DNA from: Candidatus Hermodarchaeota archaeon
Lineage (GTDB): Archaea; Asgardarchaeota; Heimdallarchaeia; Hodarchaeales; Hodarchaeaceae
DNA length: 32,000 bases
Assembly (NCBI GenBank): GCA_048886185.1
Contig: JBHLKY010000004.1
Span: forward strand, 120,001-152,000
Reading direction: 5' to 3'
The translations under genes and the position numbers were made by a program. The notes beneath the pieces were generated by a model. That model was not told the origin of the DNA. It worked only from the letters and a program-made list of their open reading frames with translations, and made no database searches. Positions 7,573-32,000 of this stretch are shown here, one piece after another (the first letter of the stretch is position 1; each line of letters begins with the position of its first letter).

Positions 7573-7737
7573 ATGAGCTATAGAAAAAGAGACAATTACA
7601 ATCGCACACCACGAGAAATGCACAAGGTCACTTGTGCAGATTGTGGAACAGAAACCGAGGTTCCTTTCAAACCTGATGGAACAAGACCTGTCTATTGTAG
7701 AGATTGTTATAGAAAAAGACGCCCAAGAAGGTATTAA
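7573..7737 (+). CDS. Small CxxC-x17-CxxC zinc-binding domain protein (54 aa)
   Basis: Manual translation: MSYRKRDNYNRTPREMHKVTCADCGTETEVPFKPDGTRPVYCRDCYRKRRPRRY*. It has exact CxxC-x17-CxxC spacing with the family-typical REMHK.TC..CG...EVPFKP...RPVYC pattern. It is below the ORF-track length cutoff; in-frame ATGs at 7564/7567 are alternative starts. Confidence 0.93.
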   Translation: MSYRKRDNYNRTPREMHKVTCADCGTETEVPFKPDGTRPVYCRDCYRKRRPRRY

Positions 7738-7914
7738 CCCAACTTATCTAAGAGTTTTTCCAATCGTTCATCATTCATTACCTCTCTAAGTTCAACTAGA
7801 TCGTCTTTACTTCTAATGAAATAATCTCTCTTCTTTTTTGGGTTTCCTGATTCATCAACTGGATTTAGTGCTACTATTAGAGAAGGATCTTGATTTTTTC
7901 TTGGTGGAGGTCAT
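7734..7914 (-). pseudogene. Frameshifted/start-less remnant of a small conserved archaeal hypothetical protein
   Basis: Minus frame 7910->7734 reads PPPRKNQDPSLIVALNPVDESGNPKKKRDYFIRSKDDLVELREVMNDERLEKLLDKLG*. From memory (not searched) this resembles an archaeal hypothetical family with an LNPVD..GNP.K.R..RS core. The nearest ATG (7914) is out of frame by one base, and two TGA codons lie immediately upstream in-frame. Confidence 0.5.
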
Positions 7915-8335
7915 ACTCAATCCCACCTATTAAAGCTCCCCCTCTCGGAGGTTTATTTTTATGCAATCCTTCTATAGAAGGTTCTTTCTGAGTTTTGGAA
8001 ATTACACGGACATATGTATTTTTTTTATAATTCCAATTTTTGGAATTGCTATCCAAATTATTGATAATCTATTCTCCCCTTATTTGATTTATTGATCTTA
8101 AATTCATTAAGATATTCTTTTAGGAACAGAGGTTCCATTTTCCCAAATCTATAAGATAGAATGAATGTTATTCCAAACAATATTTCTTGGTAGTAGTATA
8201 ATCCAATCGATCCGACTTATTCAAAGGAATTGGGGTTATGAGTAGGGATTTGGATTATTCTATTTCAATTTAAAGATTACCAGAATCATATCTTATTTAA
8301 ATATTAAATCTATATCTAGATCTGGTGTCAAAATA

Positions 8336-9127
8336 ATGAAAAATAGTATAAAACTTGAAAAAGCGTCAATAGAGGATGCAGAAATACTCGCAAAGATTTC
8401 TAAAAAAGCGTTTGACTCTGATCATTTGGTAGGTTCTCCATTTGGTAAAGGTGGCCCTCCAGGTTACGATTCACCTGATTCATATATCAGGCTTATGAAA
8501 GGTTTTGAATGTTATAAGATTCTAATTAATAGCAAAATTATCGGTTTTATGGCTTATAATCCAAAAAAGAAGACTAATTATGTAATGGAGCGTATTTTTA
8601 TTGACCCTGACTATCATAAACGAGGAATAGCAAGTGAGGCAATGTCCAGCTTATTTAATAAATTTCCAGATGTTGTTTGGACCTTAGAGACTCCAGAATG
8701 GAACAAAAGAACAAGAAATTTCTATAAAAAAAATGGTTTTCGACAAGTAGGTTTGGAACATACCTGTAATCCAGGAGGTAAATGGAAATGTATCTGGTAT
8801 CAAAGGGATTGCGAGGGAGTTGAGATTATCCAAAAAATCGGGGATTTGAAAGATGGTTCAACTGATGTTATTGTAAAGGGTATTGTAAAAAATATAACTG
8901 AAGGTCATAAGGTTAAACTTCAAAGTGATGAGGAAGAATTAACAGTTGCTACTGTTATACTTGAAGATGAAACAGGTCAAATAAAATTTACTCTATGGAA
9001 TAAATTAATTTCATGTGTCAAATTAAATAAACCTTTCAGAATTGATTTTGGAAAAGTTACCTCATACAATAATGAGCTTCAACTGAATGTTGATTGGTAT
9101 GGTAGGATTATTGAAATCACCCAATAA
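8336..9127 (+). CDS. GNAT N-acetyltransferase fused to a C-terminal SSB/RPA-type OB fold
   Basis: N-terminal GNAT: GGPPGYDS, motif A RIFIDPDYHKRGIAS, WTLETPEWNKRTRNFYKKNGF. C-terminal ~100 aa (about 8828-9124): KIGDLKDG..DVIVKGIV...ATVILEDETGQIKFTLWN...GKVTSYNNELQLNV, matching the single-OB crenarchaeal SSB pattern (DETG.I/VK.TLW). Confidence 0.9.
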   Translation: MKNSIKLEKASIEDAEILAKISKKAFDSDHLVGSPFGKGGPPGYDSPDSYIRLMKGFECYKILINSKIIGFMAYNPKKKTNYVMERIFIDPDYHKRGIASEAMSSLFNKFPDVVWTLETPEWNKRTRNFYKKNGFRQVGLEHTCNPGGKWKCIWYQRDCEGVEIIQKIGDLKDGSTDVIVKGIVKNITEGHKVKLQSDEEELTVATVILEDETGQIKFTLWNKLISCVKLNKPFRIDFGKVTSYNNELQLNVDWYGRIIEITQ

Positions 9128-12500: not shown

Positions 12501-13347
12501 CCTCTTTGGTGATGCTGACTTCACTTGGTATTACATTGAAGGAGTAGATATCGAAAATCATACATGGACTTCACTAGTAAAACGGAACTTAACCAATGGA
12601 ACTTATACTCTTTTTGCTTATGGTAACGATACCGCTGGAAACGAAGCAGTAACGAGTATAACCTTTTCAATTGATACCACTAGAGCTACTGTAATTATTG
12701 AATCGCCTATCAGTACCACTTATTCATATAGTACTATCACTATAGCGTTCTCCGGTGATGCTTTATTTTATCTGTACCAAATTCCAGGTGTTGTAAATAT
12801 TGACACTGTTTGGACTTCTCCAATCACATATTATTTTGAAGATGGAACATATACTTTATACGGATCTGGATTCAAAACTATGGGAAAAACAACTTATGTT
12901 AATGTAACATTCACGGTTGATACAACCCCTCCAACAATTATTCTTAATTCTCCGACTAGTTCTAGTATATATAGAAGTAGCAATGTTTCAATTGACATCT
13001 CTGGAAATGCAGAGCGCTATTGGTATTATATCGAAAATATTGATAGTGAGAATCAAACTTGGACACAACCTATGAACCGAAGTTTGAGCGATGGTAACTA
13101 TATAATCCATATTTATGGTAATGATTCCGTAGGTAACATAGCACATTTGAATCTAACTTTTACAATATCAATTCCAATCCCCACATCGATACCAAGTACA
13201 TCTTCGATGATTATGGTATCTGGAACAACTGTAGAAACATCCTCTTCAACCCCGAAGCGAGGAAACTTTCCTAATTATACTGTAGTAATATTAATCTTGA
13301 CAATTTTAGTAATTTTCATTCGAGGACGTAAAAAGAAGCAAATATAA
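9532..13347 (+). CDS. Secreted/surface protein: N-terminal DUF7948-like domain, 7 SBBP beta-propeller repeats, 6 Ig-like repeats, S/T linker, C-terminal TM and basic tail
   Basis: TTG start with AGGAG RBS at 9518-9522; signal peptide ending LSSC; GFIENRGQ, DLYPGIDLRYY and LKYEFIIQPGANP motifs. Seven (F/Y)(S/N)T(Y/F)(L/I)GG...D.G..I.VD...N.YI.G repeats and six ~80-aa ..SP.N...G.Y.L..(Y/F)GND..GN....F.ID modules. Ends GNFPNYTVVILILTILVIFIRGRKKKQI. Confidence 0.92.
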   Translation: MEFLKKRAKTIALLIGMILFLSSCAYLNLLTEINDQKLKDMDDSSSLDTPAVSDLKYPIIKEPLALPFSGFIENRGQIIDKSLAYYYCMGGMIVSFSSSKINFALFSCQDIQQSYFSITFPGSQEVIPIGQGLKSHYINFFIGDFQQTNVLTYNEVWYYDLYPGIDLRYYMSIEGLKYEFIIQPGANPDLIKLLGSSSIKFFIEDKNISFLDSVQEKIYLQDSKLKVYQDDGTDISANFVSKSSEENCYGFRIASFDNSQRLIIDPLILSFSTYLGGSSYDYGYDIVVDSENATYILGQTNSLSFPITPGTINDSFNGGTSDLFIAKLDPVGNNLIFSTYLGGSKEDSGYRIALDTSNNTYITGKTASLDFPTTSNAFSESFNGGEYDIFVTKLNATGNKLVFSTYLGGAEGDYGREIVVDASGNTYITGETESLDFPTTPDTIDDTHNGGTSDAFIVKLNTGGDNLVYSTFIGGGGNDYGYSIAIDDFNNVCITGETWSSNFPVVGAYDNTKGGNTDAFLTKINADGDGFVFSTYLGGSGLDYGYDIAVDSYNNMYITGKTTSVNFPTRNPYSSYRGGYDAFVTKINSAGDDLVFSTFLGGSGEDSGHAITVDVYNNTYITGRTASTDFSTPLNAFNNTHSGSYDAFVTKLDALGNKTIFNTFLGGEGEDFGHGIEVDAYNETYIVGYTRSNDFPTYNAYSSTYSGSYDCFITKFNLDEEPPKINLESPANNTIHNSGKTINFTVRDLHLSNVLFNWDEGINQTLTESFIITLPMGDDQHRLNVYAVDRAGNWAYNYFTFTTDDTAPLVYLISPGNWIYPEIIVDLSGDADHYWYYIDGVDIDNQTWTTAITRNLSNGTYTLHAFGNDTVGNEAYTSVSFTIDTSFALVVIDSPVNASYSSNNTSIELSGDAESYWFYIRGFHDENQTYLPPVTFNLTDGKYVLHAYGNNTVGNVTHVSVTFTIDTIPPEVTIISPINTLYTSGSITINLFGDADFTWYYIEGVDIENHTWTSLVKRNLTNGTYTLFAYGNDTAGNEAVTSITFSIDTTRATVIIESPISTTYSYSTITIAFSGDALFYLYQIPGVVNIDTVWTSPITYYFEDGTYTLYGSGFKTMGKTTYVNVTFTVDTTPPTIILNSPTSSSIYRSSNVSIDISGNAERYWYYIENIDSENQTWTQPMNRSLSDGNYIIHIYGNDSVGNIAHLNLTFTISIPIPTSIPSTSSMIMVSGTTVETSSSTPKRGNFPNYTVVILILTILVIFIRGRKKKQI

Positions 13348-13408: not shown

Positions 13409-16150
13409 TTACCTGCTTGAAGATCCAGTCAATTTATTTAGTTTACCTAAATTAGAATAGTTCTTCTGTTCGTTTTTAATATCATTAAGATCTTTAGCTA
13501 ACTTTAAGGCTGAATTGATAGAATTACGGGCCTTATCCCATTGCTCCAAATCCAGATAAAGACTTCCGATCACGGTTTGCCATCGACACAAATTTCGTCT
13601 GTTCATATATTTCTCTGCACTAGCTATAGCCTTCTCAAGATATTCTACTGCCACTTTCAATTGCCCCTTAGTACTTGTGGTCTCTTGAATTGTTGTACCT
13701 ATATTACCATATAATATTCCTTCTGTTTCTTTATCCATGTTTTTAACATATTTTAAGCATGCTTCATATTCATTAAGGGCCTCTTTGTATTTATCTACCT
13801 TAAAATAGACATCACCAAGTTTCATAAGCCATTTTACTTTATGATCATCCGTTTTCGCCATATTAAATGCTTTTTCAACATTTTCCTTTGCTAGATCAAA
13901 TAAACCAACTTCTTGGTAAGCATCAGCAATATCTCCGTACAAATTTTCTTCTGCTTCTTGATCTCCCATCTTTGAGACAATAGCTACTGCTTTTCGGAAA
14001 TAACCTGTAGCTTGCTTTTCATCAGAAGTAATATGACATTTACCTAGGTTAATTAATTGTTTAGATTGGATTTCTTTGTCATCCCTTTCTTGAGCGATCT
14101 TCAATGCCGTTTCAAAAGAAACAATAGCCTTTTCAATTTTATTTTGGGCAAAAAAAGCATCTCCTAGATTTGAATGTGAAATTCCTTTCAGTTCTGTTAA
14201 AGACAAATCATCAGCGATCTTAATTGCTCGATTAATGAATTTAATTGCTGTTGAATGATCCCCAGTAAGGAGGTATTCTGTACCTAGATTGGTAAGTATT
14301 TCCCCTTCTATTTTCCTATCTAGGTCTGAATGTTTTCTCAAAGCTTTTTCATTTAAACTTATAGCCTGATGTATATCTCCTTGTTTTTGGTAGGTGTAAG
14401 CTAACTTCATTAACCAGATTGCTTCCTCCTTTCTGATTCCCAGGTTCTTGACTATTTTTATTGCTTCTTCATAGTATTTTATTGCTTCATCGATTTTACT
14501 TTCAGCAAGAACAACATTTCCTAATGAGCCTATCCATCTACCTTGGTATAATTTTAAGTCGTTATCCCTGGCTTTATCTAAGGCCTCTTGGTAATGTTTT
14601 CTGGCTGAATTATAATCCCCTGTATCATAATAGACATTGCCAAGGTTACCCAGCTGCTCTACCACCTTGTTATTTTTTGTAGAGATATCCTCGATAGTTT
14701 TGGCTCTTTCTAACGCTTCTTTGTAAGCTTTCAAGGCCTCATCAGAGTTTCCTAATGCTAAATAGGTTTTAGCTATTTGTTCAAAAGAATGAACATGACT
14801 TATAATATCCGCAATTTTCCCAGCAATTTTCTGTGCTTCCTCAAAATAGCCAAGAGCCTTTTTATATCTTATTAAATCATACTCTATTCTTCCAAGGGCT
14901 ATTAACAGTTCAATGTGGGCTTTTTCATTACCTGTCTCCTTTGAAATTTTTAATGCTTTATTAAATTCTGAGCTGGCACTGATGTCATCACCCATTTCCT
15001 CATATGCTCTTCCCAGACCTAGAGAGTATAATGCCTGTCTTTCTTTATCCTTTCTAGTTTGAGCTAATTTTACTGCTGTTTTGAAATGTTCAATAGCAGG
15101 TTCATATTGATTGATTTTAGATTCAGCTTCAGCTAACTTCCCATACCATTCCATGGCATGATCTATGTTAATTTCCTCCGCAATAGTGGCTGCTTTGGTT
15201 AAATGCTTGATAGCTTTCGAGTACTGCTCCATTTCGAAATAGGCTTTTCCTACTTTCCCTAATTGTAGTTCGAAAGCCATTTTATCCTGTGATGATTTCA
15301 GTACTCGCGCAGATTTTTCATAGTTATCTTTAGCTTTTTCCATATCACCACTGGTAAAAAGAACATCAGCTAATAATCCTAAGTAACTTGCTTCTTCTTC
15401 TTTTTCCCTAGTTGTCTCAACAATGTCTATTGCTTGCTTTAAGTTTTCAATCGCTTTAGATAATTCATTCTCGGAAAAATAACTATTTCCAATAAGAGCA
15501 TAACTCATTCCTTCAATTTTATTTGCAGAAACTTCTTTAGCTAATGCTTTTGCTTTTTCATAAAACTCAATAGCTTTGTTAAAATCTCCTTGATTATGAT
15601 AACATTGACCAAGAAAGTTAAGCCATCTCGCTTCACTCCGTTTATCATTCAATTTTTCGCTCAATGACTTCGCTTTATTGAAAGAATTCATTGCTTCCGT
15701 TAATTCATTATTATCTAGATGAAGGATACCTAATTGACCATAACACTTTCTTTCAGCAGCTAAATCCCCGCTATCTTTAGCTAGTGTGGCAGCTTGTAGA
15801 TAAGCTTCTCTAGAATCTTTTAACTTCCCCGCAAGCTTTTGAACATGTCCTAAGAGGATTAAGACTTTAAATTCATTAATTTTATCGCCTAAAGTGCTGT
15901 AAATCTTACTTGAATTCTTGAAATTCTTAACAGAATCAGTTATGTTATCAAGTTTACTATAAACCTCCCCTAATTTACTAAGAATTCTTGCTTCAGCAGG
16001 TTTATCGCTAATCTCTCGTGTTAAAATTACAGCTTCCTCAAAATGTTTTGCAGCACGTTCCAGATAATTTTCCTGAATCTCAAATAAGGAATCCAAATCA
16101 GAGTCAGTTTTTTTAGATTTAATTTCGGTTAAAGTGTGAGGTTCACTCAT
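13409..16150 (-). CDS. Large cytoplasmic TPR-repeat protein (~40-aa repeats, roughly 22 copies; no recognisable effector domain)
   Basis: On the minus strand although the track says +: ATG at 16150, TAA at 13409-13411. Continuous repeats of the type E...LG.LG..Y...G....A...(F/Y)E.AL..A....D; no signal peptide or TM. Confidence 0.93.
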   Translation of the reverse strand: MSEPHTLTEIKSKKTDSDLDSLFEIQENYLERAAKHFEEAVILTREISDKPAEARILSKLGEVYSKLDNITDSVKNFKNSSKIYSTLGDKINEFKVLILLGHVQKLAGKLKDSREAYLQAATLAKDSGDLAAERKCYGQLGILHLDNNELTEAMNSFNKAKSLSEKLNDKRSEARWLNFLGQCYHNQGDFNKAIEFYEKAKALAKEVSANKIEGMSYALIGNSYFSENELSKAIENLKQAIDIVETTREKEEEASYLGLLADVLFTSGDMEKAKDNYEKSARVLKSSQDKMAFELQLGKVGKAYFEMEQYSKAIKHLTKAATIAEEINIDHAMEWYGKLAEAESKINQYEPAIEHFKTAVKLAQTRKDKERQALYSLGLGRAYEEMGDDISASSEFNKALKISKETGNEKAHIELLIALGRIEYDLIRYKKALGYFEEAQKIAGKIADIISHVHSFEQIAKTYLALGNSDEALKAYKEALERAKTIEDISTKNNKVVEQLGNLGNVYYDTGDYNSARKHYQEALDKARDNDLKLYQGRWIGSLGNVVLAESKIDEAIKYYEEAIKIVKNLGIRKEEAIWLMKLAYTYQKQGDIHQAISLNEKALRKHSDLDRKIEGEILTNLGTEYLLTGDHSTAIKFINRAIKIADDLSLTELKGISHSNLGDAFFAQNKIEKAIVSFETALKIAQERDDKEIQSKQLINLGKCHITSDEKQATGYFRKAVAIVSKMGDQEAEENLYGDIADAYQEVGLFDLAKENVEKAFNMAKTDDHKVKWLMKLGDVYFKVDKYKEALNEYEACLKYVKNMDKETEGILYGNIGTTIQETTSTKGQLKVAVEYLEKAIASAEKYMNRRNLCRWQTVIGSLYLDLEQWDKARNSINSALKLAKDLNDIKNEQKNYSNLGKLNKLTGSSSR

Positions 16151-18687
16151 GCTTCTTCAACTCCTTGTGCAAAATATGCATCTCCTAAGCTTTCTAACTC
16201 TTTTATCTGAAATTTCTTATTCTTTGTCTTTTTAAAGATCTTGAGTGCCTCTTTATGATTTTGAATCGCTCTTTTAAAGTTTCCAGCTTTGAAGTAAATA
16301 CGACCAATGGCTCCAAGTCTTTTTCCCTCTTCATGTTTGTCTTTTGCCTTTCGGGCTTTCTTCAAAGCCTTGATTTCGTCTTTCACGGCCGATGGAACCA
16401 TTAATCGACGAGTGATATACCAATAACCTGCACCAGATGCAGCTAGTACCAGAAATCCTGTCATAATGATATTTGGCCAAGGATTAGCCTCAGGTTGAGC
16501 AAGATATGGAGGAATTGGCTGATGGGGGATTGATTGGTTTGTTTGTTCGTCAGCTCTAGGAATATCAGGATTTGCATAAACAGTTACGGTAACATAATCT
16601 TCGACAAATTGGTTAACAATAATTGAGAATCGATATGTACCGACAGGAAGATCATCAATAACAATTTGATGTAGGATTGGTTCCCCAGACACAAATACTC
16701 CAGTGGAGATTACAATTCTACGTGTTCCATTGTCTTGATAGATTGTGTAGGTTCCGCTCTCAGTACTGATTACTGTCCAATTCAAATCTAGAATTTCACC
16801 AATCTTTTCATATTCGTACCACATCTGAGACGACATTTCAGTTCTAATCTCAACAATAATTCCAACAAAAACAAGTACAGTATCATTTACAATGTTTCCA
16901 GAGGTATCACTAGCAAGAAGTGTGTAATTGAATACTGTATACTCATCAACACCTAGGAAACTAATGCTATAATTTATGCTTTCAAGTGAAGCCCAAGAAT
17001 CAGATTCGACTTCTGTACCATTTAAGTATATTAGATAATCCGCAGGATAGTTATCACTTATGGTCCATGAAAGTATTTGATCTTTCGTTCCAAAACCTAA
17101 GTATAAATCATCTGGACTGTCTACTAATTGTGGTAAATCCATTTCAAGGACAGTTACTTGTACCTCATCAATGATCTGCATCCCAGTGCTCTCTGTTAGC
17201 ACTAACCGATAAGAATATGATCCAACTGATAGACTATAATTTAGCTGATGATTTATTAAAATGTTATCTATCCATTCTCCACTATCCGTTAAAATATTAT
17301 CCCTGTAAATCGTATAACTTTGTGCGTTAGGGTCTTTTGCGGTCCATGAAAGAGAATTAGTGATATTTCCTTCTTCAATTATGAGATCTTTGGGTCTAAT
17401 GAAAGATTCAAGAGTAATAAGTTGACCTTCCACAGTGTTTTCTGAATATTGTACATTCTGACTCGTCTCATCAATGTATATCCAATCTTGAATATCAGAT
17501 AAAACATTCTCGATAAGAACAGAATTATTACATCTGATAATGTATAACCCAAAAGAAGATGAAATATCAGTTATTGTGTTGTATCTCACTGCTAAATATT
17601 CATCTCCCTCAGTGAATATACCAATTGCTTCTGAATTTGATGAAATAAGGTTAGAAATGACATTCCATTCAATGAATACTGAATTACTTGTTTTTAGATT
17701 TATCCCATATGTGTAAGTATATGTAGAAGAAAGGTATTGAATGGTATTATTTCCTATAGTTGCCCCAGTACAATGTTCTAAATAGATTCCTTTTACTTCA
17801 AGGAGTCCTGCATCAACTGAGGTAATGTTATTTACTATTATCTGAGAGTGTGGACTGTCATCCAATGAAATTCCAGAAGATGTGAGAGTAGAAGAGAATA
17901 TAGCTGAAATTTTGTTGTTTTTAATTATCATAGTTGAGCTATCATCAACATAAATGCCATGGGAAGATTTTGAACTGATATCACCAATGTAAGACTCAGT
18001 TATATTACTCCCTCGTGATGCTTCTACCAAAATTCCATATGCCATCCCAAAAAGGGATTCTAAATCCTGAATCCTTGTATCTACGATGTTTACTTCTATA
18101 CTATTGTATAAACGGATACCCGAAACATCTCGAGGAGAACCGAGACTCGAAGAAGTCGATGAGATTTGTTCGATTGTATTATTTCTTATTGTTGTATTTT
18201 GAGAGTTCATTAGGTATATAGCTGAGGCCGAATTAGAAGTTGAGATAATGTTAATAATTGTATTATTATAGATCTCGGTATTTGGGCTGTTATCAAGCAT
18301 TATTCCGTATGCATAAGAAGAATTTGTGATGTCTGTAATGTTATTATTTCTAATTATCGAGTTCTCACTGTTTACTAATTCTATTGAAGTATTTCTGTCT
18401 TGATTTTCAATAATACTTCCTGGAGCATTTATAATAGAAATAGATCTTATTGGTTGTTTAATGAATAGATCATCCTCAAAGGTGGGGGAATCCAAGACTA
18501 GTGAATGACCATTTCCATTTAAGGTGAGTCTGAAACCATCTGACTCATGATATAGCAGCACTCTTATCTCTTGCCCATCAACTAGAACAGTTTTCTCACT
18601 CCAAACACTAGTGTGTGAAACATATCGATTTACTGATGCTGCTAAAGCCAGCAATAAGAAAGTAAGGATAATGGTTCTAGGTCTCAT
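16147..18687 (-). CDS. Single-pass membrane protein: right-handed beta-helix (NosD/PbH1-like), 3 Ig-like domains, TM, cytosolic TPR stub
   Basis: On the minus strand although the track says +. Signal peptide MRPRTIILTFLLLALAAS; repeated GI.L..S....I..N.I motifs; three LSWT..D..P..Y.IY.NG-type Ig modules; Pro-rich linker; TM IIMTGFLVLAASGAGYWYI; tail with TPR RLGAIGRIYFKAGNFKRAIQNHKEALKIF. Confidence 0.92.
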   Translation of the reverse strand: MRPRTIILTFLLLALAASVNRYVSHTSVWSEKTVLVDGQEIRVLLYHESDGFRLTLNGNGHSLVLDSPTFEDDLFIKQPIRSISIINAPGSIIENQDRNTSIELVNSENSIIRNNNITDITNSSYAYGIMLDNSPNTEIYNNTIINIISTSNSASAIYLMNSQNTTIRNNTIEQISSTSSSLGSPRDVSGIRLYNSIEVNIVDTRIQDLESLFGMAYGILVEASRGSNITESYIGDISSKSSHGIYVDDSSTMIIKNNKISAIFSSTLTSSGISLDDSPHSQIIVNNITSVDAGLLEVKGIYLEHCTGATIGNNTIQYLSSTYTYTYGINLKTSNSVFIEWNVISNLISSNSEAIGIFTEGDEYLAVRYNTITDISSSFGLYIIRCNNSVLIENVLSDIQDWIYIDETSQNVQYSENTVEGQLITLESFIRPKDLIIEEGNITNSLSWTAKDPNAQSYTIYRDNILTDSGEWIDNILINHQLNYSLSVGSYSYRLVLTESTGMQIIDEVQVTVLEMDLPQLVDSPDDLYLGFGTKDQILSWTISDNYPADYLIYLNGTEVESDSWASLESINYSISFLGVDEYTVFNYTLLASDTSGNIVNDTVLVFVGIIVEIRTEMSSQMWYEYEKIGEILDLNWTVISTESGTYTIYQDNGTRRIVISTGVFVSGEPILHQIVIDDLPVGTYRFSIIVNQFVEDYVTVTVYANPDIPRADEQTNQSIPHQPIPPYLAQPEANPWPNIIMTGFLVLAASGAGYWYITRRLMVPSAVKDEIKALKKARKAKDKHEEGKRLGAIGRIYFKAGNFKRAIQNHKEALKIFKKTKNKKFQIKELESLGDAYFAQGVEEA
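16161..16165 (-). promoter_or_regulatory. Candidate Shine-Dalgarno AGGAG for the TPR gene
   Basis: Minus strand reads AAGGAG-TTGAAGAAGC-ATGA. It could also be coincidental Gln-Gly-Val codons of the upstream gene. Confidence 0.5.
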
Positions 18688-18696
18688 TTCATCTCA

Positions 18697-18701
18697 CTCC
18701 T
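18697..18701 (-). promoter_or_regulatory. Shine-Dalgarno AGGAG for the beta-helix/TM/TPR gene, overlapping the upstream TAG stop
   Basis: Minus strand reads TAGGAGTGAGATGAAATG; 12-nt intergenic gap. Confidence 0.7.
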
Positions 18702-21700
18702 AAACTAAAGCACGTCTCCTTCGAATTATCCAGTACGCAATGAAAGCCGCACTTGCTAATGCAACAATTGCAGCAAATCCTATGGCAATGATTAGCCCCC
18801 AATCAATCTCCACTTTAACGACTCTGAAAAAGATACTGTTCTTTAGTAATACGGACCCGATATTTCTATCAGGGGATGTTGGATAGCTATAATCCAGCGC
18901 CATGCCGAATACTTGTAATTCATACTCTCCTTCTTTAAAGTTAATTGCACTATGAGTCCATCGAGAATAACCTTGATATTTTAGGCTATAATTCTCACTC
19001 CAACCATCTGTAGGAGTCTGGGGACTTGCAGGAATTGTAGTTGGAATAGATAAGGGGGAGGAAGTTTGAGTTGTAGCTGAGACAGTAGTTGTCAGATTTG
19101 TGATTTCACTTCCAGAAGTCTTTCGAAAACGGAAATATACATTATTTCGATCTAATCTTGTTAAATTCAACATCTCAAAGGAAATTGAGCCTACCGAATA
19201 TGATCCATTGTGTATAGGTGATTTCATTTGCAAGGGGGAAGTCAAACGAAGAACGGCTGCTAAGAATTCTTCTTCAGATGTGTATACAAGTGGATCAGTT
19301 CTTATCCATAATTCTAATGGATCACTGTACCCATCGAGATCGGTATCAGCGGTATAAGGTAGGGTTCCATAAACAAGAATCTCATCACCGTCTAAAAGAC
19401 CATCAAAATCAGAATCGGGATTCCGATAATCAAGAAATCCTCCATGCTCATATCCATCAGAAATATTATTGTTATTTCGGTCAATATCTAGTCTATACTT
19501 ATTATAGGTGTTATATTCATCTCCATCAGAAATAAGGTCATGATCATAATCACGCTCGTAACCATCTAAAATTCCATTATTATTAACGTCAGGATTATAT
19601 GGATTATATCGATAATCACCATCATCAGCAAAGACTTCTAATCCATCCGGCCAACCATCACCATCACTGTCAGGATCAAGTGCATTGGTAAAGTAGGAAG
19701 GATCATATTCACTACCCTCGGCACCAATTCCACCAGGTGTGACATGAGTAACTTCCTGATTATCTTTTATTCCATCACCATCAGTGTCACTTTTTCTTGG
19801 ATCAGTATGATGTGCGTAAATTTCGTCCCAATCAGAAAGTGTATCATTATCTGAATCCACAAGATCAGGTCTCAAATTATTATCTACTTCATATTTATCT
19901 CCTAACTTATCACCGTCACTATCTGGATCAACAGGAGATGTAAGTAAGGGAAATACTGCTTGGTACGCAATGAATGGGAATATTAAGATTTCAATTTCGC
20001 CAATCACGAGTTCTTTACCATCAATTAATCCATCATCATCTGTATCGTTATCAAGTACATCTAATGGAATATTCACAAAATTCGGTATATCACCTGTGGC
20101 TAAATACAATTCCCATGTGTCAAAAAGTGAATCATTGTCACTATCTATTGATTTTGGATTTGTACCAAATTGTATCTCATCAAAATCTGTCCAAAGAAAT
20201 GTTGGATCACCATTTTCATCAGGACTCATGATAGAATCATAGTCTGAATCGATGTTATTTGGATCAGTTTCATATATAAAGATCTCTGGGCCGTCACGGA
20301 GGCCATCTCCATCACTATCGGGATTCATTGGATCAGTACCAAATTCAATTAGTTCATCCCGATCAGTAATATCATCATTATCCGAATCTTCATCAACAGG
20401 GTCAGTACCATAAATATAAATCTCTGCATAGTCTTTTATTCCATCTCCATCACTATCTCCACTATGTGGATTTGAGTGACTAAAGAATAACTCCCAATAG
20501 TCCGTTACACCGTCAAAATCAGTATCAGGCATATGTGGATTTGTGTTGAATATGAAGAATTCGTCACCATCTAGAATGAGATCATTATCTGAGTCAGGGT
20601 CGCTTGGATTCAAGCCCAATGCTATTTCAATCCCATCAGGGAGGGAATCGCCATCTGTATCGGGATTGTAGAAATTTGTTGTCACATTTCTTTCTGCTAG
20701 TAATGTACCCTCAAGTCCATCGATCAATCCATCATCATCTGAGTCAGCATCTAGAGGATCACTCGCAGGGTCGAGGCTTAATTCATATCCATCTGAATTT
20801 AAGAAACCACCTGCTCTTGGTTCTCTTCCCTGACCTGTGTCTCCATCACTATCAGGATTACATGGATTTGTTTGGAAGATCTTTGATACTGGTTCATTGT
20901 CTTCAATGATTGTTGCAGCGATGCCTCTGACTTCAACACCATCTCTCATGTCACGAGTATATACCTTGGATTCTGAAGTGCCTGCGATAGACCCATCATA
21001 ATATTGATAGAAAGAGTCATCATCAGTATCGTTGTCTAATGGGTGTGTATAGCCATCATTAAAGAGTAGCATCGGTTTATCTGATTCCTCTGGGTAATTA
21101 TTGGGATTACCCCACCAAGGGCCAAATTCTCCTTCTTGGCCATCAAGAAGTCCATCATTATCAGTATCAGGATTCAATGGATCAGTACGATTATCGTAGA
21201 TTTGATTTCCAATCTTTACTGCTGTAACTGAAGGAGTAATAGGCCAAGTGTTGTTTTGTTGAGAAGTATTGACTTGGGAAGGAATAACCCAGTCAGTATT
21301 AACCTCGAAGTAATCAGTTAAACCATCTGAATCTGTATCTCGTGAATTTGGATTGGTTCCATAAAGTAATACTTCCTCACCATCTAACAATCCGTCCATA
21401 TCGGTGTCAGGTAAGTTTGGATCGGCCTTGGGAGGTGAGTGAACACCATACCACTCAATGAAATCACTTAGGCCATCGCCATCTGTGTCGTATTTTCCTG
21501 GATCAGTTTTACTCACTTTTAATTCATATTTGTCACTGAGTCCATCACCATCAGTGTCAGCCTTATAGGGATCTAAGGATGTGCTTTCGTTTTCTTGGGC
21601 ATCGCTTAATCCATCATTATCAGAGTCATATCCTAGCGCATCTTCTTTGAGTTCTGGACTGTCAGGTGGGGGTAAGAGAAGTAGAGGGAAACCTGGTGGT

Positions 21701-24700
21701 CGGTATTGAAATCCAATTTCAAAGTCCCAGAAAAGGAACGTAAGTGTGAGTGTAGCCCATAAAATTATATCAAGTGTTATTGTAAAGGGCCCAATGTTAC
21801 CGGGAGTTAAATCTTGGTGAAATATCAAATAAATATCTAATCCAATCTTGAAAACGATACCAACAATTCTTAGATCTAAACCAATTGTGATATATGCACC
21901 TATACCTAAAGTTAAGGTTAGTGATCCTTGTGCTGGTTCTCCATTATGTGCGGCTTTCTGGTAGATCTCGAATGCAGCAGACAACCATATTGTTAGGGTA
22001 AGAACATCTAGACCAATATATGCCATTGCTTTGTTAACTGTACCAGCAACCGATGCTCCTGCCCCTGTGGCATATAAGATGAGCTCTATGAGGGTAATAT
22101 CCTTTGAAACCTTAAATCCTATACTAAAATGCCATTCAAGTATTTTCATAAATCCCTCGGGATCAAATCCACCAGATGAAAAGGCAAATAACTGGATTGA
22201 AAACCCAATCGATCCCCATACTTCGAGATCTATACCTAGAGGAGCAAGAACTGCTCCGAATACCCCTCCACCGCCTGAAGATACCGTTGAAGCAGTTAAG
22301 GAAGCAGAAAAGACTGGTGCAAAGGTTATAAATGTTATGATCTTCTTGAAGAATTCTGGAATATCGAGTTTGAAGTCATCAATTCCTGTAAATATGATTT
22401 CCTCTATCCATGTTCTGAAAGCTTCATTATCCCATTGGAAGTTAAGACCAATAGATAGGTTGAACGAAAGTTTGATTCCAATAACATCTCCTCCTGGGAG
22501 AGGGATATCTCCTCCAAGAGATAGTAGTGGTTTGGCTGAAATCTTTGCTGCAATTTTGCCTGTAAATTCACTTATTAAATCTGCTAAGAATGAGGCGAGT
22601 AAAGTTTTAAATTCTTTAAAAATAAAATCAATACCACCACTGAGGAGATCTTTTATCATGAAAAGGTAATATATCCCCTTTTCTGCTAGAGAAAGAAGTG
22701 CATTTGAGATAATCGGAAATTTATCCTTTAATGTAGATGTAACTAAATCTTGAAGTTGCTGACATGTTTGAGTTGCATTGAATATTGCATCACCACCTAG
22801 AATGTTCTTGCCAATTATTCCAGTGAAAAGACTCTGAATTATTTGCATCGTGGCTGTACCGTCTATCCCTAGATAGTTAAAGAGTAATACTCCTGCTTGC
22901 ATTGCTGCTGATCGTAAAAATGACGTGATTGAGTTTCCTTTAGCTGAAAGGAGTACGGTTGTTATAGTTAATATTCCATCTGCAAATACCTGAACTCCTT
23001 TACTCAGAGTTTTCTTTATAGTGTCCGTTGTGTTTAATCCATCAACCCATATAGAGAATAGGCCATATACGGCATTTCTCCCGATTTTAATTATCTCCCA
23101 TTGTATTTCTTTAAGTTCTAGAGTTTTGTTTTCTCCCATGGTTTCTATGTCTTTTTCTGCTAATTTACTTGCATCGTCGACTAAAAGTAATTGAGCTGCG
23201 GTATTAGATTTCCCTAATGCAATTATCCCAAAAATAGTCTCAAGGACTAAGAAAAATACTTTCTCTTTTGTGTCTGACACAGTGGTATTAACTGCAGTAA
23301 TGTTTAGAAATTGTTTACTTACATCTTTTATATCAGAAGCAAATGGTTCTGACATACTTGGTATGCAAATTGCTCCTAACCATGCTAGGGCATCTATAAG
23401 TGTTTGAGCTTCTGGGGAGTCAGTGGGAAGAGAATTTTCAGTCATATTACTAGTAATTAGCTGTTTTAGCTGGTTTCTATCTGTTAATTGGTCTCTAGAA
23501 GCATCAGCAATAATAGAAACGATATCTTCTGAAAATAGGGTGACACGTCTATCGTTTGCTGTTAGAGTTACTCCTAACATCGGGATAGAAGAGTTTATTA
23601 CATTGAAAAATGATTTTTGATTCGCCTTCAGAGCATCAATTTCACTAGCGGTTGTCCAATATTCCAGCGCTTTTCCAGGAAGAGTGAATGCATCAAAGAA
23701 CGCCATTGCTGAACGATAGAATTGACTAATTGTTCCTATAGCACTTTCTTCTCTTGAAGTCAATGTTTGATTTGTCATTTTTGAGAATAAATATTCAACA
23801 AAATCTGGAATAATCTCCATTAAATCATCAAAATCACCAGTTGTGAAAGCTTTAATTAAGGGAGAGAGAAATCCCATAATTTTGCCTATCTCTTTTAATA
23901 GCGTGCTATTGGTTCCCCCAAGGACATCAGACCACCAAGCATACGTGCTAGCATTGAGGATCTTATCTATGGCAAAACCTACAATCGTATTTAGGGCATT
24001 AAACTTCTTTCCTTCTTCTTCAGCTTTTTCTTTTTCACTAATCATCAATTCTGCAAGTTCAACACCATTTAGCAGTGTTCCTTTCAAAACTTTGATCATG
24101 GTTGTTATGATCGTTGAATTTGATATATCCCCGATTACCGTGAAAATAGTCTCAATGACTGATCCAGCAAAATCAGTTATATCAGTGGCTGATCCGCGAA
24201 TCAAGTAAAGTGCATCCACAACAAGTGGTAGAAATGGTTTAATTTTCTCTGAAATTGGTGCATTATCAGTAATGAGCTTGATCAGTTTTTTAATAGTCCC
24301 CTTAACATCTCCTTCTCCCTCATCAGAAGAAGTAAATATCAAAGCAATATCTTTAATGGTGTTACAGATATCAATTGCTGTTTCTGGATCTAATCCAAGT
24401 GCACTTCCACCGAACTTAATCAATACCGATAGAATAGCATCAATAACAGCAGCTGTTGGCCCCTCTATCCCTGAAAACAGAGGGATATCAGATATTTTGA
24501 ATGCTGCTTCTTCTTCAGTTGCGGTCTCTTCATTGAAAATTCGAACTCTGGTTTCAGGAACAGGAATGGTATCATTGTCAAAACGTCTGATTGATTGATC
24601 AGGCATGACTTGATATGCATCATACCAACTTTCCATCTTATCATCCCAGGCCTGAGCTTTTGCTACAAGATCTTCTTCACCAAGGGGATTCACTATTTTT

Positions 24701-25386
24701 CGAGGATCCATAATTCCATTTAGAATACTATTAATATTCTCCGCGAAGTACTTTACTCCTAAGATTCTGAAATCTTCAGCAACTCTTTGATATCCTAAAC
24801 CAGGATCTGCTCCTAGTATTTCACCGATTTCCCAAAGATAATAGAAGTAAGATTGTTCTGCACCTATAACTTGACTTCCTTCAATATGGATTTTTGTTTC
24901 ATTAACAGGTACAAGTGCGCGTAACTGATCCGTTGAACCAGAACCAAAAACATGGAATGTTTGCGGTTCTATGACTGCTTCAGCGATTTCAGACCACTTT
25001 ATTAGTTTCCCACCCATCCAGACACCATCAAGCTTTCCATTAATGAAATATAGCTTTATCCAATAGGTATTGTCGAGTATTGTTGATCGTAGTTCCTTCC
25101 AATTTAATACAGGAATAAGATGGACATTATGATAGATAATACCTGCTGATGTAAACACATTTAGTGCTGTGTTAATTAACAAGCTGTGGTTGTTGTCATA
25201 AATGACTGCAATTTTTCTCGGTAAATCAAAGCCAGGGTATTTTTCATCAAAAGGTGGGATTTCTTTTATCCGATTGATTTCAGCTCTTTGGGCAGCAACA
25301 CTTCCCACACTTAAGAGAATAATAAGTATGATAAAAGTTGAGTAAACAACGTTCCTATAACGAATGATCTTCTTTGCATCAATCAT
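18700..25386 (-). CDS. Giant (2228 aa) membrane-anchored surface protein: signal peptide, alpha/beta domain, amphipathic helical region, amphipathic beta-strand region, TSP3-like Ca-binding repeat array, Ig-like domain, C-terminal TM
   Basis: On the minus strand although the track says +. The start is reassigned from TTG 25476 to ATG 25386 (MIDAKKIIRY...): it forms an ATGA overlap with the upstream stop, has AGGAGG 8 nt upstream and exposes a normal signal peptide. Ends with TM WGLIIAIGFAAIVALASAAFIAYWII and RRRR. Confidence 0.9.
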   Translation of the reverse strand: MIDAKKIIRYRNVVYSTFIILIILLSVGSVAAQRAEINRIKEIPPFDEKYPGFDLPRKIAVIYDNNHSLLINTALNVFTSAGIIYHNVHLIPVLNWKELRSTILDNTYWIKLYFINGKLDGVWMGGKLIKWSEIAEAVIEPQTFHVFGSGSTDQLRALVPVNETKIHIEGSQVIGAEQSYFYYLWEIGEILGADPGLGYQRVAEDFRILGVKYFAENINSILNGIMDPRKIVNPLGEEDLVAKAQAWDDKMESWYDAYQVMPDQSIRRFDNDTIPVPETRVRIFNEETATEEEAAFKISDIPLFSGIEGPTAAVIDAILSVLIKFGGSALGLDPETAIDICNTIKDIALIFTSSDEGEGDVKGTIKKLIKLITDNAPISEKIKPFLPLVVDALYLIRGSATDITDFAGSVIETIFTVIGDISNSTIITTMIKVLKGTLLNGVELAELMISEKEKAEEEGKKFNALNTIVGFAIDKILNASTYAWWSDVLGGTNSTLLKEIGKIMGFLSPLIKAFTTGDFDDLMEIIPDFVEYLFSKMTNQTLTSREESAIGTISQFYRSAMAFFDAFTLPGKALEYWTTASEIDALKANQKSFFNVINSSIPMLGVTLTANDRRVTLFSEDIVSIIADASRDQLTDRNQLKQLITSNMTENSLPTDSPEAQTLIDALAWLGAICIPSMSEPFASDIKDVSKQFLNITAVNTTVSDTKEKVFFLVLETIFGIIALGKSNTAAQLLLVDDASKLAEKDIETMGENKTLELKEIQWEIIKIGRNAVYGLFSIWVDGLNTTDTIKKTLSKGVQVFADGILTITTVLLSAKGNSITSFLRSAAMQAGVLLFNYLGIDGTATMQIIQSLFTGIIGKNILGGDAIFNATQTCQQLQDLVTSTLKDKFPIISNALLSLAEKGIYYLFMIKDLLSGGIDFIFKEFKTLLASFLADLISEFTGKIAAKISAKPLLSLGGDIPLPGGDVIGIKLSFNLSIGLNFQWDNEAFRTWIEEIIFTGIDDFKLDIPEFFKKIITFITFAPVFSASLTASTVSSGGGGVFGAVLAPLGIDLEVWGSIGFSIQLFAFSSGGFDPEGFMKILEWHFSIGFKVSKDITLIELILYATGAGASVAGTVNKAMAYIGLDVLTLTIWLSAAFEIYQKAAHNGEPAQGSLTLTLGIGAYITIGLDLRIVGIVFKIGLDIYLIFHQDLTPGNIGPFTITLDIILWATLTLTFLFWDFEIGFQYRPPGFPLLLLPPPDSPELKEDALGYDSDNDGLSDAQENESTSLDPYKADTDGDGLSDKYELKVSKTDPGKYDTDGDGLSDFIEWYGVHSPPKADPNLPDTDMDGLLDGEEVLLYGTNPNSRDTDSDGLTDYFEVNTDWVIPSQVNTSQQNNTWPITPSVTAVKIGNQIYDNRTDPLNPDTDNDGLLDGQEGEFGPWWGNPNNYPEESDKPMLLFNDGYTHPLDNDTDDDSFYQYYDGSIAGTSESKVYTRDMRDGVEVRGIAATIIEDNEPVSKIFQTNPCNPDSDGDTGQGREPRAGGFLNSDGYELSLDPASDPLDADSDDDGLIDGLEGTLLAERNVTTNFYNPDTDGDSLPDGIEIALGLNPSDPDSDNDLILDGDEFFIFNTNPHMPDTDFDGVTDYWELFFSHSNPHSGDSDGDGIKDYAEIYIYGTDPVDEDSDNDDITDRDELIEFGTDPMNPDSDGDGLRDGPEIFIYETDPNNIDSDYDSIMSPDENGDPTFLWTDFDEIQFGTNPKSIDSDNDSLFDTWELYLATGDIPNFVNIPLDVLDNDTDDDGLIDGKELVIGEIEILIFPFIAYQAVFPLLTSPVDPDSDGDKLGDKYEVDNNLRPDLVDSDNDTLSDWDEIYAHHTDPRKSDTDGDGIKDNQEVTHVTPGGIGAEGSEYDPSYFTNALDPDSDGDGWPDGLEVFADDGDYRYNPYNPDVNNNGILDGYERDYDHDLISDGDEYNTYNKYRLDIDRNNNNISDGYEHGGFLDYRNPDSDFDGLLDGDEILVYGTLPYTADTDLDGYSDPLELWIRTDPLVYTSEEEFLAAVLRLTSPLQMKSPIHNGSYSVGSISFEMLNLTRLDRNNVYFRFRKTSGSEITNLTTTVSATTQTSSPLSIPTTIPASPQTPTDGWSENYSLKYQGYSRWTHSAINFKEGEYELQVFGMALDYSYPTSPDRNIGSVLLKNSIFFRVVKVEIDWGLIIAIGFAAIVALASAAFIAYWIIRRRRALV
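19320..21630 (-). repeat. Array of ~27 D(S/T)DxDG(L)xDxxE TSP3-like calcium-binding protein repeats
   Basis: Counted by eye from DSDNDGLSDAQE to DTDLDGYSDPLE; most are preceded by a T(D/N)P...P linker, and several carry long insertions. Confidence 0.9.
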
Positions 25387-28300
25387 GTCTGAAACCTCCT
25401 TTTCTTCCTGACTCTTTGTCTTTGCTGCCTTACGACAGTAAGAGTTGAAGTAAATGTGAATAGAAAGATTGGCCACATTAATTCGGGATGAATTTGGCCT
25501 CTATCACTTCCCAAGGGACTTTTCGGGGCTACCAAAGCCTGCTCGGGAGTAAATCCCTCGAGATAGGAAGTTGCGGATTCTCCCTTTTGTGACTTAATGA
25601 TCCTATTAGAGGGATCTGCAACCGCTAATGTGTTATCCTTTAAAATTGTCACAAATGCTACTTTCATAGTTGTGTCAACCTTCCAATCCATAACTGTAAT
25701 TATTTCTTCAGGGAGTGAATATGACTCTAAGACAGTTCCACTGGATGTTAAGACAACAAGTGAGTTATGAATAACTAGTACAACTTCGCTCTCAGGAGTT
25801 TTATCGATATTAGTAAAATGATGGCTTATAGAGTCATTATAATAGTTATGGAACTCCGTTAGGACAATCATTGCACCACCATCGTCCCTAAGTACAAATG
25901 AACCATTATTGCGTGTAATTATCAATATATCATCAACAGAACCTTGATCAGCTACATCTAGAGAAATAACTTCCTCTTGATTGACAATATTATACGAAAG
26001 CGTTCGAATTTCTCCACTAGCGAGCCAACTATATCTTTGCAATTGCCCTTCGTCTGAAAGCAGAACTATAGTGGCTAAATGGTCACTATTTCTTATTGAT
26101 CTAACTTCAATCCATTTTGTCCCTAAGGAAGGCGCAGGGAATAATCCCCCTAATACACTAGTTGACGGTAATTCTATTAAGCTGGTTTTTCCAAGATAAT
26201 CCAAAGCAACAATATGTGTATCAATTCCAATATTGGAAACATCAAAACATTCTGCTTCTAAATAAGTGAAATAGGAAGGATTAGCATAAGTCCAGATGGA
26301 TGTTTTCGTAATTGGATCCAAAATTGATAATATTCCACTTTTACCTGAAATCGTTTGAATTAATAAAACATCAGATCTACCATTTAAGGATAAAGAAGCC
26401 TCGATCGAACCACTAGTAGCAATTTGGGCCCATACACTAGTTGTTGTTCTTTCAAAAATATAGAGATCGCTTGTGTCAGTTTTAATTGCGAGGCCATATT
26501 TTCCTGGTTCGATTTCTAGACCAAGCGCACTGATACTTGAAAACGCTGAAATTTGAATTCTCCATAATTCTCCACGATTGAAACTTGTCAGAATAAGTGT
26601 CCCATTATTAAAAGCAATCAGAAGTTTTTCAGTTCCATCATTTGTCAATACAACAGGAATCACACGATATTCAGTTGAGGCGAGATTAGAATAAAGTATC
26701 TTCATATTGGTATCTACAATGGATGCCTGAACCGTAATAGTATTAGTTACTTTTGTCAACATTCCAGTAACTCTATAGATCAGACTGGTTCCATTAATAC
26801 TTGGGACTCCAATGAATGTTTGCCCATCATTTCTGTTATTAATGCTTGCTGTTGCAGATTGATAGTCGGTCTCTGTCCAAAGAACATCTGCTCCAGTTAA
26901 AGATAAAGCAAATAACCCTAAATCCTGAATAAACGCAAATAAAATTTCTTCTTTTCCATAAGGTTCGATCTCAAATTTAACCATCTTATCTCTGAAGTAT
27001 CTATGCCAGATTATTGTGCTAGTAGCCACATCAATGGCAAATATTGCACTTTTATATTCATAGGAAGGGAAGATGCCAGTAGAAAAGTTAAAAGTATGAA
27101 TTGGTAATAAAATGTCTGTAATAGTATCTTTATTCACATCTCGTGCATAAATTGGAAACTTTGTGAGATCCAATCCTTCAGGGACAGGTATTGTTTTGTT
27201 CAGTATTAAATTCATGAGTGATAGGTCATAAACTTCTATATAACTCTTATTTGCTGTACCGCTGTCAAAATTAACAATAGCTAGATCTAGGGTGTAGTCA
27301 CCATCAAAATCTCCGATAACTGATCGTGACCTTGTATCAAATATTGATAAGTGGGTTAAGTTGAATGCTTGCAGGGTTGTCCCATTATTATCGAGAATCA
27401 TTACTTGCTTGTACGTAGAAAAATCACTAGAGCATACAGATATTATTGTTGTACTTCCAAGTACTCCTGCAGCAACATCAAAGTAACCCATGTTTTGGAT
27501 ATTATTATCTGGGTTCTTATCCCAGATAACTTCTCCAGATACGAGATCAATGGCACGCAAACCTGTAGCTGTTGCAACAATGATGTCTGCTTCCGTATCA
27601 CCATTAACATCAGCGAAAGCATGATTATTAGCAATGTCTAATGAGTTTGCGTCGATCCAAAATCGTTCAGTGCCATCTAAATCGACTCCAAATAATCCTG
27701 CAGAAGTGACTCCTAGGATAAATGGTGTTTCAGATGAAGAGTTCAACAGATAGATCTTTCCACCTATCCCTGGTGCTGGATAATTCCATAATAAAGTCTC
27801 ACTAGTTATATCCCAAGCTGTAACTCCATTTCCATATTCTTCATCAGCAATAATGAGGTCTAATTCCCCATCATTGTTAACGTCAATCAGAAGACTGTCG
27901 GAAGTGGATTCTATAGCTGAAACAGTACTTATGGCATAGATTTCCGTGAGAGCATAGAGATCATTTATTGGCTGTTCTAAATTGGTGACCTCAAAGCTAT
28001 AGACATCACCCCCTCGAACCGAGAAAATCAGTTCAGGCCAACCATTTCCGTTTCCATCGAAAATTGCTACTGTTCCGATTTTGCGAGGTTTAGCTTCATC
28101 TGAAATAAAAAATTCTGCATAAGTACTGTTTAGGAGTTCTGGATGCAGAGAGACAAATAAGGGTGGCTGATATTGCCATTTCTGGGAGTAAAAATTATCT
28201 TCACAGACTTCAAGTAAGGAGACACGGTAACCATGAGCAATAAGTAATTCACTTCGCAGATCATTATCTGTGTCCCCCACAGCAATTGCTGTCACATCTA

Positions 28301-32000: not shown

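Follow-up and report, generated by a model that had tools for sequence, protein, structure and literature searches.

Does a run of four adjacent genes in an Asgard archaeon, three of them for membrane-anchored proteins and one for a cytosolic tetratricopeptide repeat (TPR) protein, specify one surface structure with a link to the cytoplasm, or a set of surface proteins that only share a locus? Cryo-tomography of cultured Asgard archaea has shown a single membrane covered by an irregular or amorphous protein coat and carrying large protruding structures, and it is to such structures that the cell-cell contacts featuring in models of eukaryogenesis have been ascribed (PMC9834061; bioRxiv 10.1101/2025.11.06.686947; 10.1101/2025.07.22.663070). 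The four genes lie in a 32,000-nt window (G000:C4:120001-152000, the whole stretch of DNA that was analysed) from a Heimdallarchaeia/Hodarchaeales archaeon, the genome of which is 4.84 Mb in size, 96% complete and 5% contaminated. In order of transcription we call them g1 (an FG-GAP giant), g2 (a TSP3-repeat protein), g3 (a beta-helix protein with a TPR tail) and g4 (the TPR protein). An earlier note on this DNA had presented them as a candidate for an undescribed four-part apparatus for adhesion-to-cytoplasm signalling. Our results point instead to a lineage-specific extension of a two-gene Asgard module, and we lean modestly towards the view that the four genes represent an Asgard-restricted module of giant surface proteins in a four-gene form peculiar to this lineage, in which the tail of g3 tethers g4. 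The co-evolving anchored pair at its core, of 2,200 aa and 3,100 aa, is a concrete candidate for part of the Asgard surface structures.

Conservation and joint duplication of the g1-g2 pair

The head of g2, without its TSP3 repeats, was used as the search query, and the flanks of 32 homologous loci, which together with the window make 33, were compared with the window proteins by blastp. In all 33 loci, an FG-GAP giant was the immediate same-strand neighbour of the g2 family member. In 26 of the loci, which are spread across the class and other Asgard classes, g2 precedes g1 (type B). The reverse order, g1 then g2 (type A), was found in six loci, namely the window and genomes G010, G012 and G008, all of the same genus, and genomes G026 and G030 of another family. 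In the one remaining locus the two genes are fused: genome G123 carries a single open reading frame (ORF) of 4,901 aa (L056:1631-16333, G123:C28), in which both transmembrane segments are kept and a cytoplasmic linker of ~70 aa, rich in Lys, Ser and Glu, leads from the C-terminal transmembrane segment of g2 to the N-terminal anchor of g1. Two other long frames, of 4,716 and 4,348 aa, hint at additional g2-g1 fusions. The g2 member of such a pair is defined here as a protein of ~2,100-2,300 aa that has the head and TSP3 repeats. The close homologues of g2 belong to Candidatus Heimdallarchaeota or Hodarchaeales and are all annotated as 'hypothetical protein'; one of them comes from a closed genome of 4,943,496 bp, and a closed 4.36-Mb genome (G230) also carries the pair. 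A profile of the g2 head gave 159 matches among 1.84 billion cluster representatives, and the head was present in 70 of 251 Asgard genomes and in 33 of 63 genera.

Quick maximum-likelihood trees, with SH-aLRT values as the only measure of support, were built for both families. All type A g2 sequences formed one clade (SH-aLRT 100), as did all type A g1 sequences (SH-aLRT 100), and in the g2 tree the order of the genomes within the type A clade mirrored that of the type B copies from the same genomes. Because both families show a type A clade and the order of the genomes matches, the trees indicate that a joint duplication of g1 and g2 preceded the divergence of the two families, and that each copy has since kept its own partner. 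We consider this co-duplication, together with the fusion, to be the strongest evidence for g1 and g2 acting together. The proposal that the two behave as obligate partners, always adjacent, co-duplicated and once fused, is supported by these sequence comparisons.

The genes that accompany the pair vary among lineages. In each of the six type A loci, the gene after g2 is a g3 homologue. In other genera (G034 and G024), the gene after the type B pair encodes a type-I membrane protein of the NosD/Beta_helix kind (129-195 bits); in the genus studied here, the third gene of type B encodes a PPC-repeat protein. The search for synteny that the earlier note had recommended gave a divided answer: two families of the class have the g1-g2-g3 order, six species belonging to a single genus have g3-g4, and the four-part order is not general. 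Nor does the cluster stand alone: on the same strand, immediately upstream, there is a paralogous cluster of three genes (G000:C4, ~155270-174200; also L001:10273-19949 and L020:1-13654). It encodes a g2 paralogue of 2,226 aa, an FG-GAP giant of ~3,175 aa and a PPC-repeat type-I protein of 936 aa, has the ancestral gene order (g2 then g1), and makes with the four genes a run of ~41 kb holding seven surface-module genes. As a separate observation, a protein with VIT and VWA domains and with hydrophobic segments at its N and C termini adjoins the g2/g1 pair in a distant Asgard genome (G106:C4; L045:14272-16161). The beta-I domain of integrins has the VWA fold.

Organization of the four-gene cluster

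An ORF scan with translations placed four co-directional ORFs on the minus strand over positions 13409-32000 (Table 1), and the layout given in the earlier note, with two stop/start overlaps and one short spacer, was borne out. Reading of the junction sequences located an AGGAG(G) motif 8-11 nt upstream of the starts of g2, g3 and g4, in agreement with the ribosome-binding sites of AGGAG type that had been reported. A GTG listed at 25476 as the start of g2 falls within g1, and the ATG start is preferred. Extension of the contig past position 32000, which had been suggested as a check, yielded the whole of g1: it encodes 3,158 aa, has ~2,860 nt beyond the window, extends to ~154860 of the contig and is flanked upstream by an AT-rich spacer of 400 nt. 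Metagenome contigs from an independent study span the g3/g4 and g2/g3 junctions with substitutions and no indels, and the G+C content is even along the window (34-39%). The view that the four genes form a conserved, translationally coupled unit is supported.

A hydropathy scan supported an N-terminal signal or anchor and a C-terminal transmembrane segment in each of g1, g2 and g3 and no transmembrane segment in g4, which agrees with the previous description of three anchored products and one cytosolic product. The density of N-glycosylation sequons was 1.1-2.3 per 100 aa in g1-g3 versus 0.33 in g4; as weak evidence, these values fit a placement of g1-g3 outside and g4 inside the cell. Most of the domain names assigned in the earlier note (FG-GAP, lectin, LTD, TSP3, beta helix and TPR) were confirmed by Pfam.

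Table 1. Positions of the four genes, their junctions and domains, and neighbouring genes in the window
Feature	Position	Strand	Remarks
g1	25383..32000	-	window part, continues past window end; translation, contig extension
g1 second C-type lectin domain	30267..30614	-	Lectin_C, residues 463-578 of window part; NPN...WND
g1 lamin-tail domain (LTD)	29418..29747	-	LTD 6.4e-10 in window part, above cut-off
g1/g2 junction	25383..25386	-	ATGA stop/start overlap
g2	18700..25386	-	2,228 aa counted from ATG of ATGA overlap
g2 N-terminal alpha/beta domain, CHAT/caspase-like fold	24712..25206	-	model pLDDT ~88
g2 helical region	22537..24459	-	~640 aa, ~27 helices; DSSP on model, pLDDT 55-88
g2 beta domain	21667..22524	-	~10 long amphipathic strands, barrel-like meander; predicted model
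g2 TSP3-type DxDxDG repeats	19312..21633	-	22 motifs, residues 1254-2014, invariant family-wide
g2/g3 junction	18688..18699	-	12-nt spacer holding AGGAG motif
g3	16147..18687	-	846 aa
g3 cytoplasmic TPR tail	16150..16371	-	last helix, residues 824-845, is the predicted g4 contact
g3/g4 junction	16147..16150	-	ATGA stop/start overlap
g4	13409..16150	-	913 aa
SBBP beta-propeller/DUF7948/Big_13 surface protein	9532-13347	+	1,271 aa; convergent, downstream of g4
GNAT acetyltransferase fused to Ssb-like OB fold	8336-9127	+	263 aa

Domain architecture of g1 and g2

The complete g1 product is a putative type-I surface protein of giant size, in which FG-GAP propellers are combined with two C-type lectin domains, an LTD and a propeller of Asp-box type, and which closes with a transmembrane segment and a basic tail. 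Pfam searches returned Lectin_C (8.7e-36), FG-GAP_3 (3.9e-13) and LTD (1.1e-9), with FG-GAP and FG-GAP_3 above their cut-offs, and Lectin_C reached 123 bits over two stretches, above its gathering score (PF00059). The first lectin domain, which lies outside the window, has an EPN...WND motif, and the second has the variant given in Table 1. The C-terminal hydrophobic segment is followed by the basic sequence RQQRQRVRKKRR. Judged from the lectins and propellers, together with the beta helix of g3, a role in adhesion is a reasonable proposal. The further claims that g1 and its partners build a 'glycan-binding outer layer' and that the TSP3 repeats form a 'stalk' went too far, as these were guesses from domain content.

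In g2, an N-terminal anchor is followed by a CHAT-like domain, a helical region, a beta-barrel-like domain, TSP3 repeats and a C-terminal transmembrane segment. TSP3_bac (PF18884) was the only Pfam match (5.8e-24, 84 bits, against a cut-off of 25 bits), and the repeats would be putative calcium-binding elements, to judge from their loops of the DxDxDGxxDxxE pattern. The head (residues 61-1260) was modelled with a pLDDT of 67 and a pTM of 0.40. The best structural matches of its alpha/beta domain were 8tl0_D (Z 9.4, root-mean-square deviation (rmsd) 4.1, 155 aligned residues) and 8rw5 (Z 7.6), and a receiver-like fold scored Z 6.5. No invariant His or Cys was found within the first 400 columns of an alignment of 14 sequences; therefore, for want of a conserved His/Cys dyad, we ruled out that the CHAT-like domain is a clan CD protease. 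A hint of kinship between the head and the vitellogenin/MTP large lipid transfer proteins was not reliable and is no more than a lead. Foldseek gave E values of 7e-5 to 3e-4 for it, but with TM scores of 0.07-0.12 and an rmsd of ~40 A on the model of pTM 0.40; there was no Pfam match, and such chains were not among the best rows of a second structure comparison.

The beta domain was also modelled alone from an alignment of 45 sequences, which gave a pLDDT of 77, a pTM of 0.59 and strands of 15-19 residues. When this model was compared with 48,161 chains, the top 50 were all bacterial outer-membrane barrels (Z 8.5-12.7); CymA (Z 12.7), autotransporter translocators (~11) and FhaC/CdiB (10.7) were the best neighbours. 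Matches in Foldseek and the ESM Atlas were likewise barrels, with TM scores of 0.3-0.48. The mean hydropathy of the two strand faces was +2.85 versus -1.22 in g2 and +2.58 versus -1.18 across the family, and the model thus presents the domain as a predicted sheet that faces lipid or a core. From these models, g2 is predicted to carry a beta-barrel-like domain of outer-membrane type. To our knowledge, the organism is bounded by one membrane and lacks BAM machinery, unlike the hosts of outer-membrane barrels, and a predicted membrane-type domain of this kind stands out in an organism without an outer membrane.

The g3 tail and its predicted contact with g4

The g3 product is a type-I membrane protein with a signal peptide, a right-handed beta helix, three repeats of ~90 aa and a transmembrane segment near residue 740, after which a Lys-rich tail of 84 aa holds 1.5 TPR repeats. 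Beta_helix (1.4e-20, 73.9 bits; PF13229) and NosD (3.9e-18, 66.1 bits; PF05048) both scored above their gathering scores; TPR_12 in the tail (1.1e-4, 22.8 bits) fell below the Pfam cut-off of 30.1. Of the earlier reading of g3 as a beta-helix/Ig/transmembrane/TPR protein, the beta helix, the transmembrane segment and the TPR tail stood, but no Ig domain was matched by Pfam, and the part so named is the ~90-aa repeat, which is common to other giant ORFs of the genome. An ORF of 12,627 aa on another contig (G000:C15, ~85841-86230) shares this repeat with g3. The g4 protein is an array of tandem 34-residue helix-turn-helix repeats, matched by TPR_12 from end to end (4.4e-98, 322 bits, 14 stretches), and is cytosolic by prediction. 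For both g4 (E 1e-21) and the g3 tail (E 2e-9), the closest natural solved proteins are TPR proteins of the LGN/Pins type. A search of the genome for other proteins with a transmembrane segment and a TPR tail returned one cytosolic TPR protein only.

Across the genus, the TPR and the juxtamembrane motif of the g3 tail are conserved, and in six species g4 lies directly after g3 with a stop/start overlap. This overlap is ATGA in the genome studied here, G010, G014 and G017, and ATGACTGA in G012 and G003. The two geometries set g4 in different frames relative to g3, and both ORFs are intact at 50-69% protein identity. From these sequences we conclude that the g3/g4 split has been selected and is no error.

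As had been suggested in the earlier note, a complex was predicted for the TPR pair, using residues 1-600 of g4 and the 90-residue tail of g3 (residues 757-846) with small alignments for each. The ipSAE was 0.70 (0.68, 0.72 and 0.70 in three runs), versus 0.00 for the best of three controls; among solved complexes 58 of 80, and among mismatched pairs 2 of 110, attained the mark used for this score. The runs had at least 93% of their contacts in common, with a partner pLDDT of at least 83. In the model, the last helix of g3 lies on the first helices of g4 (residues 26-66), and the tail is predicted to complete a TPR repeat of g4 in trans. If this link between g3 and g4 is true, the Hodarchaeales couple surface receptors to a cytoplasmic scaffold. 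The 90-residue tail and the soluble TPR protein also provide a handle for an assay that does not require culturing the organism.

Proposed assembly and alternative explanations

According to the explanation that we prefer, the core would consist of g1 and g2, each held by its C-terminal transmembrane anchor and most likely joined into one hetero-oligomeric unit outside the single membrane, in the irregular coat or in the protruding structures. Glycans or the surfaces of partners would be recognized by the lectin domains, propellers and beta helix, with calcium bound by the TSP3 repeats. The two genes were duplicated together in the class Heimdallarchaeia, and the copy described here is inverted (g1 then g2) and followed by the gene for the single-pass beta-helix protein g3, a probable third membrane subunit. 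In one genus of the Hodarchaeales, the last helix of the g3 tail would complete the first repeat of g4 in trans and thereby tether a cytosolic TPR platform.

Several observations weigh against this explanation. About 72% of the sampled Asgard genomes are without g2, and within the genus studied here 9 of 22 genomes gave no g2 at E <= 1e-10; four of these nine are 91-94% complete. In genome G011, the genes for histidyl-tRNA synthetase (HisRS) and GT5 are the direct neighbours of the type B cluster, and no type A cluster intervenes. Such a patchy spread fits an accessory, niche-related surface module rather than a universal coat. Pfam searches of the cluster and its neighbours turned up no gene for a kinase, cyclase, GTPase or receiver, and because no signalling domain of these or other kinds is present, the 'signalling' of the earlier note was a conjecture that finds no support. 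The cytoplasmic part is narrower still in its distribution. We found g4 in one genus only; a 99% complete genome (G008) has a g3 orthologue, the TPR tail of which is extended by an acidic stretch of ~35 aa, and no g4 (L014:4282-4641, G008:C49); and the g3 proteins of the sister family have a Lys-rich tail without TPR. The case of G008 indicates that the tail can exist without a dedicated partner, and these three observations therefore place the cytoplasmic link outside the conserved core. With respect to the complex model, the controls were unrelated proteins, none of them TPR proteins, the alignments were shallow (3-4 rows), and the score for TPR-on-TPR stacking may reflect a likeness to continuous TPR arrays.

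A first alternative, which we hold to be rather unlikely, is that the genes encode co-regulated but independent surface proteins, such as adhesins or coat proteins, which form no single complex, and that g4 is a general TPR chaperone or scaffold that merely follows g3. Genes for giant surface proteins cluster generally in this genome, as seen from the upstream paralogous cluster, the convergent SBBP/Big_13 gene and the 12,627-aa frame elsewhere; moreover, the third and fourth genes differ between lineages, and the module is dispensable in many relatives. However, adjacency in 33 of 33 loci over phylum-level distances, the fusion and the co-duplication exceed what co-regulation usually gives, the g3/g4 overlap has been kept in six species, and the complex model passes its controls. 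We regard it as highly improbable that g3 and g4 are one receptor gene split by a frameshift, through an assembly error or as a recent pseudogene, the product of which would be a beta-helix receptor of 1,759 aa with a long TPR tail. It is true that shifting the frame by one base at the ATGA would make the two ORFs continuous, that a TPR repeat appears to straddle the junction and that the g3 tail and g4 are of the same TPR type. Nevertheless, the split recurs in the six species in two geometries (ATGA and ATGACTGA) with intact and divergent ORFs, a recent error is already contradicted by the independent contigs with substitutions only, and no fused form was found among the longer proteins searched, which is weak evidence. 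An ancient split of one g3-g4 gene is possible and would be compatible with the preferred explanation.

The properties of g2 raise another alternative, that of a contact-dependent device for interaction or feeding, in which lectins, propellers and a lyase-like beta helix would seize and process the envelope glycans of a partner and the amphipathic helical and beta-barrel-like domains of g2 would insert into lipid, in the membrane of the partner or of the cell itself. Beta helices of the NosD/pectate-lyase type (PF13229/PF05048) and Asp-box (BNR) propellers, the types present in g3 and g1, are often glycan-active. The structural likeness of the beta domain is to outer-membrane barrels only, and one strongly hydrophobic strand face is conserved across the g2 family; in addition, cultured Asgard archaea have been seen attached to bacterial partners (PMC9834061). 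On the other hand, the structural matches, obtained with a predicted model, are of middling quality (TM 0.3-0.48, rmsd 4-7 A), and the hydrophobic face could pack against the helical region of g2 instead. A further difficulty is posed by the transmembrane beta barrel itself, of which we know of no archaeal example, and such a device seems to us quite unlikely. More speculative, and to our minds improbable, is the extension of our explanation to one membrane-spanning machine of all four proteins. In it, the ectodomain of the two giants would bind glycans of a partner cell, the g2 barrel would be truly embedded in lipid, in the membrane of the partner or of the cell itself, and engagement would be passed through g3 to the g4 platform. 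If true, this would be the first lipid-embedded beta barrel in an archaeon, as well as an outside-in link of integrin type, assembled from unrelated parts, in the archaea most closely related to eukaryotes.

Comparison with known systems

The nearest counterpart of the cluster is the upstream type B cluster with its PPC-repeat third gene, which has the same two families, their C-terminal transmembrane anchors and their adjacency in common with it. The window copy differs from the type B pair in its inverted order, its beta-helix third subunit with a TPR tail and its coupled cytosolic TPR protein. We found no description of a g1/g2 giant surface-protein pair in the literature. The features that are new are the co-duplicated paralogue of inverted order, the TPR-tailed beta-helix subunit, the coupled TPR partner and the barrel-like domain of g2.

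Integrin alpha/beta with talin and kindlin likewise pairs an FG-GAP propeller protein with a single-pass protein, and its ectodomains bind calcium and its tails are short and basic; by hydropathy and prediction, g1 and g2 both have a C-terminal transmembrane anchor and a short basic tail. In general design, integrins and the proposed g1-g4 assembly also agree in tying a receptor outside the cell to a scaffold within it. However, the integrin beta-I/VWA, hybrid, PSI and EGF domains are absent from g2 and g3, for which Pfam gave TSP3_bac and Beta_helix/NosD/TPR, respectively, and the GFFKR and NPxY tail motifs are not present in the cluster proteins. The inner partner is a TPR array here and a FERM protein in integrins, the cluster proteins are 3-4 times larger, and the FG-GAP repeat is the only homologous part. 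Integrin-repeat eukaryotic signature proteins have been attributed to Asgard genomes (Liu et al. 2021, as cited in PMC9258230).

The fold predicted for residues ~955-1240 of g2 is like that of outer-membrane barrels such as EspP/BrkA/Hbp, CymA and the TpsB proteins FhaC/CdiB (Z 10.7-12.7, 174-211 aligned residues), and strictly alternating hydrophobic and polar residues are found in the strands of both. In contrast to these barrels, the g2 domain sits in the middle of the chain and is predicted to be extracellular, and it has no detectable sequence similarity to them. For g4 and the g3 tail, the closest TPR class is that of LGN/Pins (GPSM2) and of TPR_12 arrays like those of kinesin light chain. 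Scaffolds of the LGN/Pins type bind the short tails of membrane-associated partners. Unlike LGN/Pins, g4 has no GoLoco or other effector parts, and the predicted g3-g4 contact is a helix complementation at the end of the array, whereas in LGN/Pins a peptide is bound in a groove.

Among Asgard archaea, large WD40/fibronectin surface proteins are listed for Nerearchaeum marumarumayae in a preprint, along with a 'badge' protein in which the beta sheets are very large (bioRxiv 10.1101/2025.07.22.663070), and complex surface proteins that are unassigned have been reported for Lokiarchaeum ossiferum (PMC9834061). By description only, these predicted proteins resemble g2 in being very large, in their big beta-sheet domains and in their proposed place in an irregular surface that is not an S-layer. 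The papers on the 'badge' protein and the L. ossiferum surface proteins describe no gene pair, calcium-repeat stalk or TPR link.

Genomic surroundings of the cluster

Beyond the convergent SBBP gene lie housekeeping genes, namely those for the GNAT-OB fusion, a pyridoxal phosphate (PLP) enzyme, HisRS and a GT5 starch synthase. Between the PLP-enzyme and GNAT-OB genes, positions 7012-8336 form a stretch of 1.3 kb that holds no ORF longer than 60 aa and weak repeats only. Rfam and tRNA scans of the window, this gene-poor stretch included, returned no match. The SBBP/DUF7948/Big_13 gene itself is kept at the same place in the closed genome of a relative, with 58% identity (L044).

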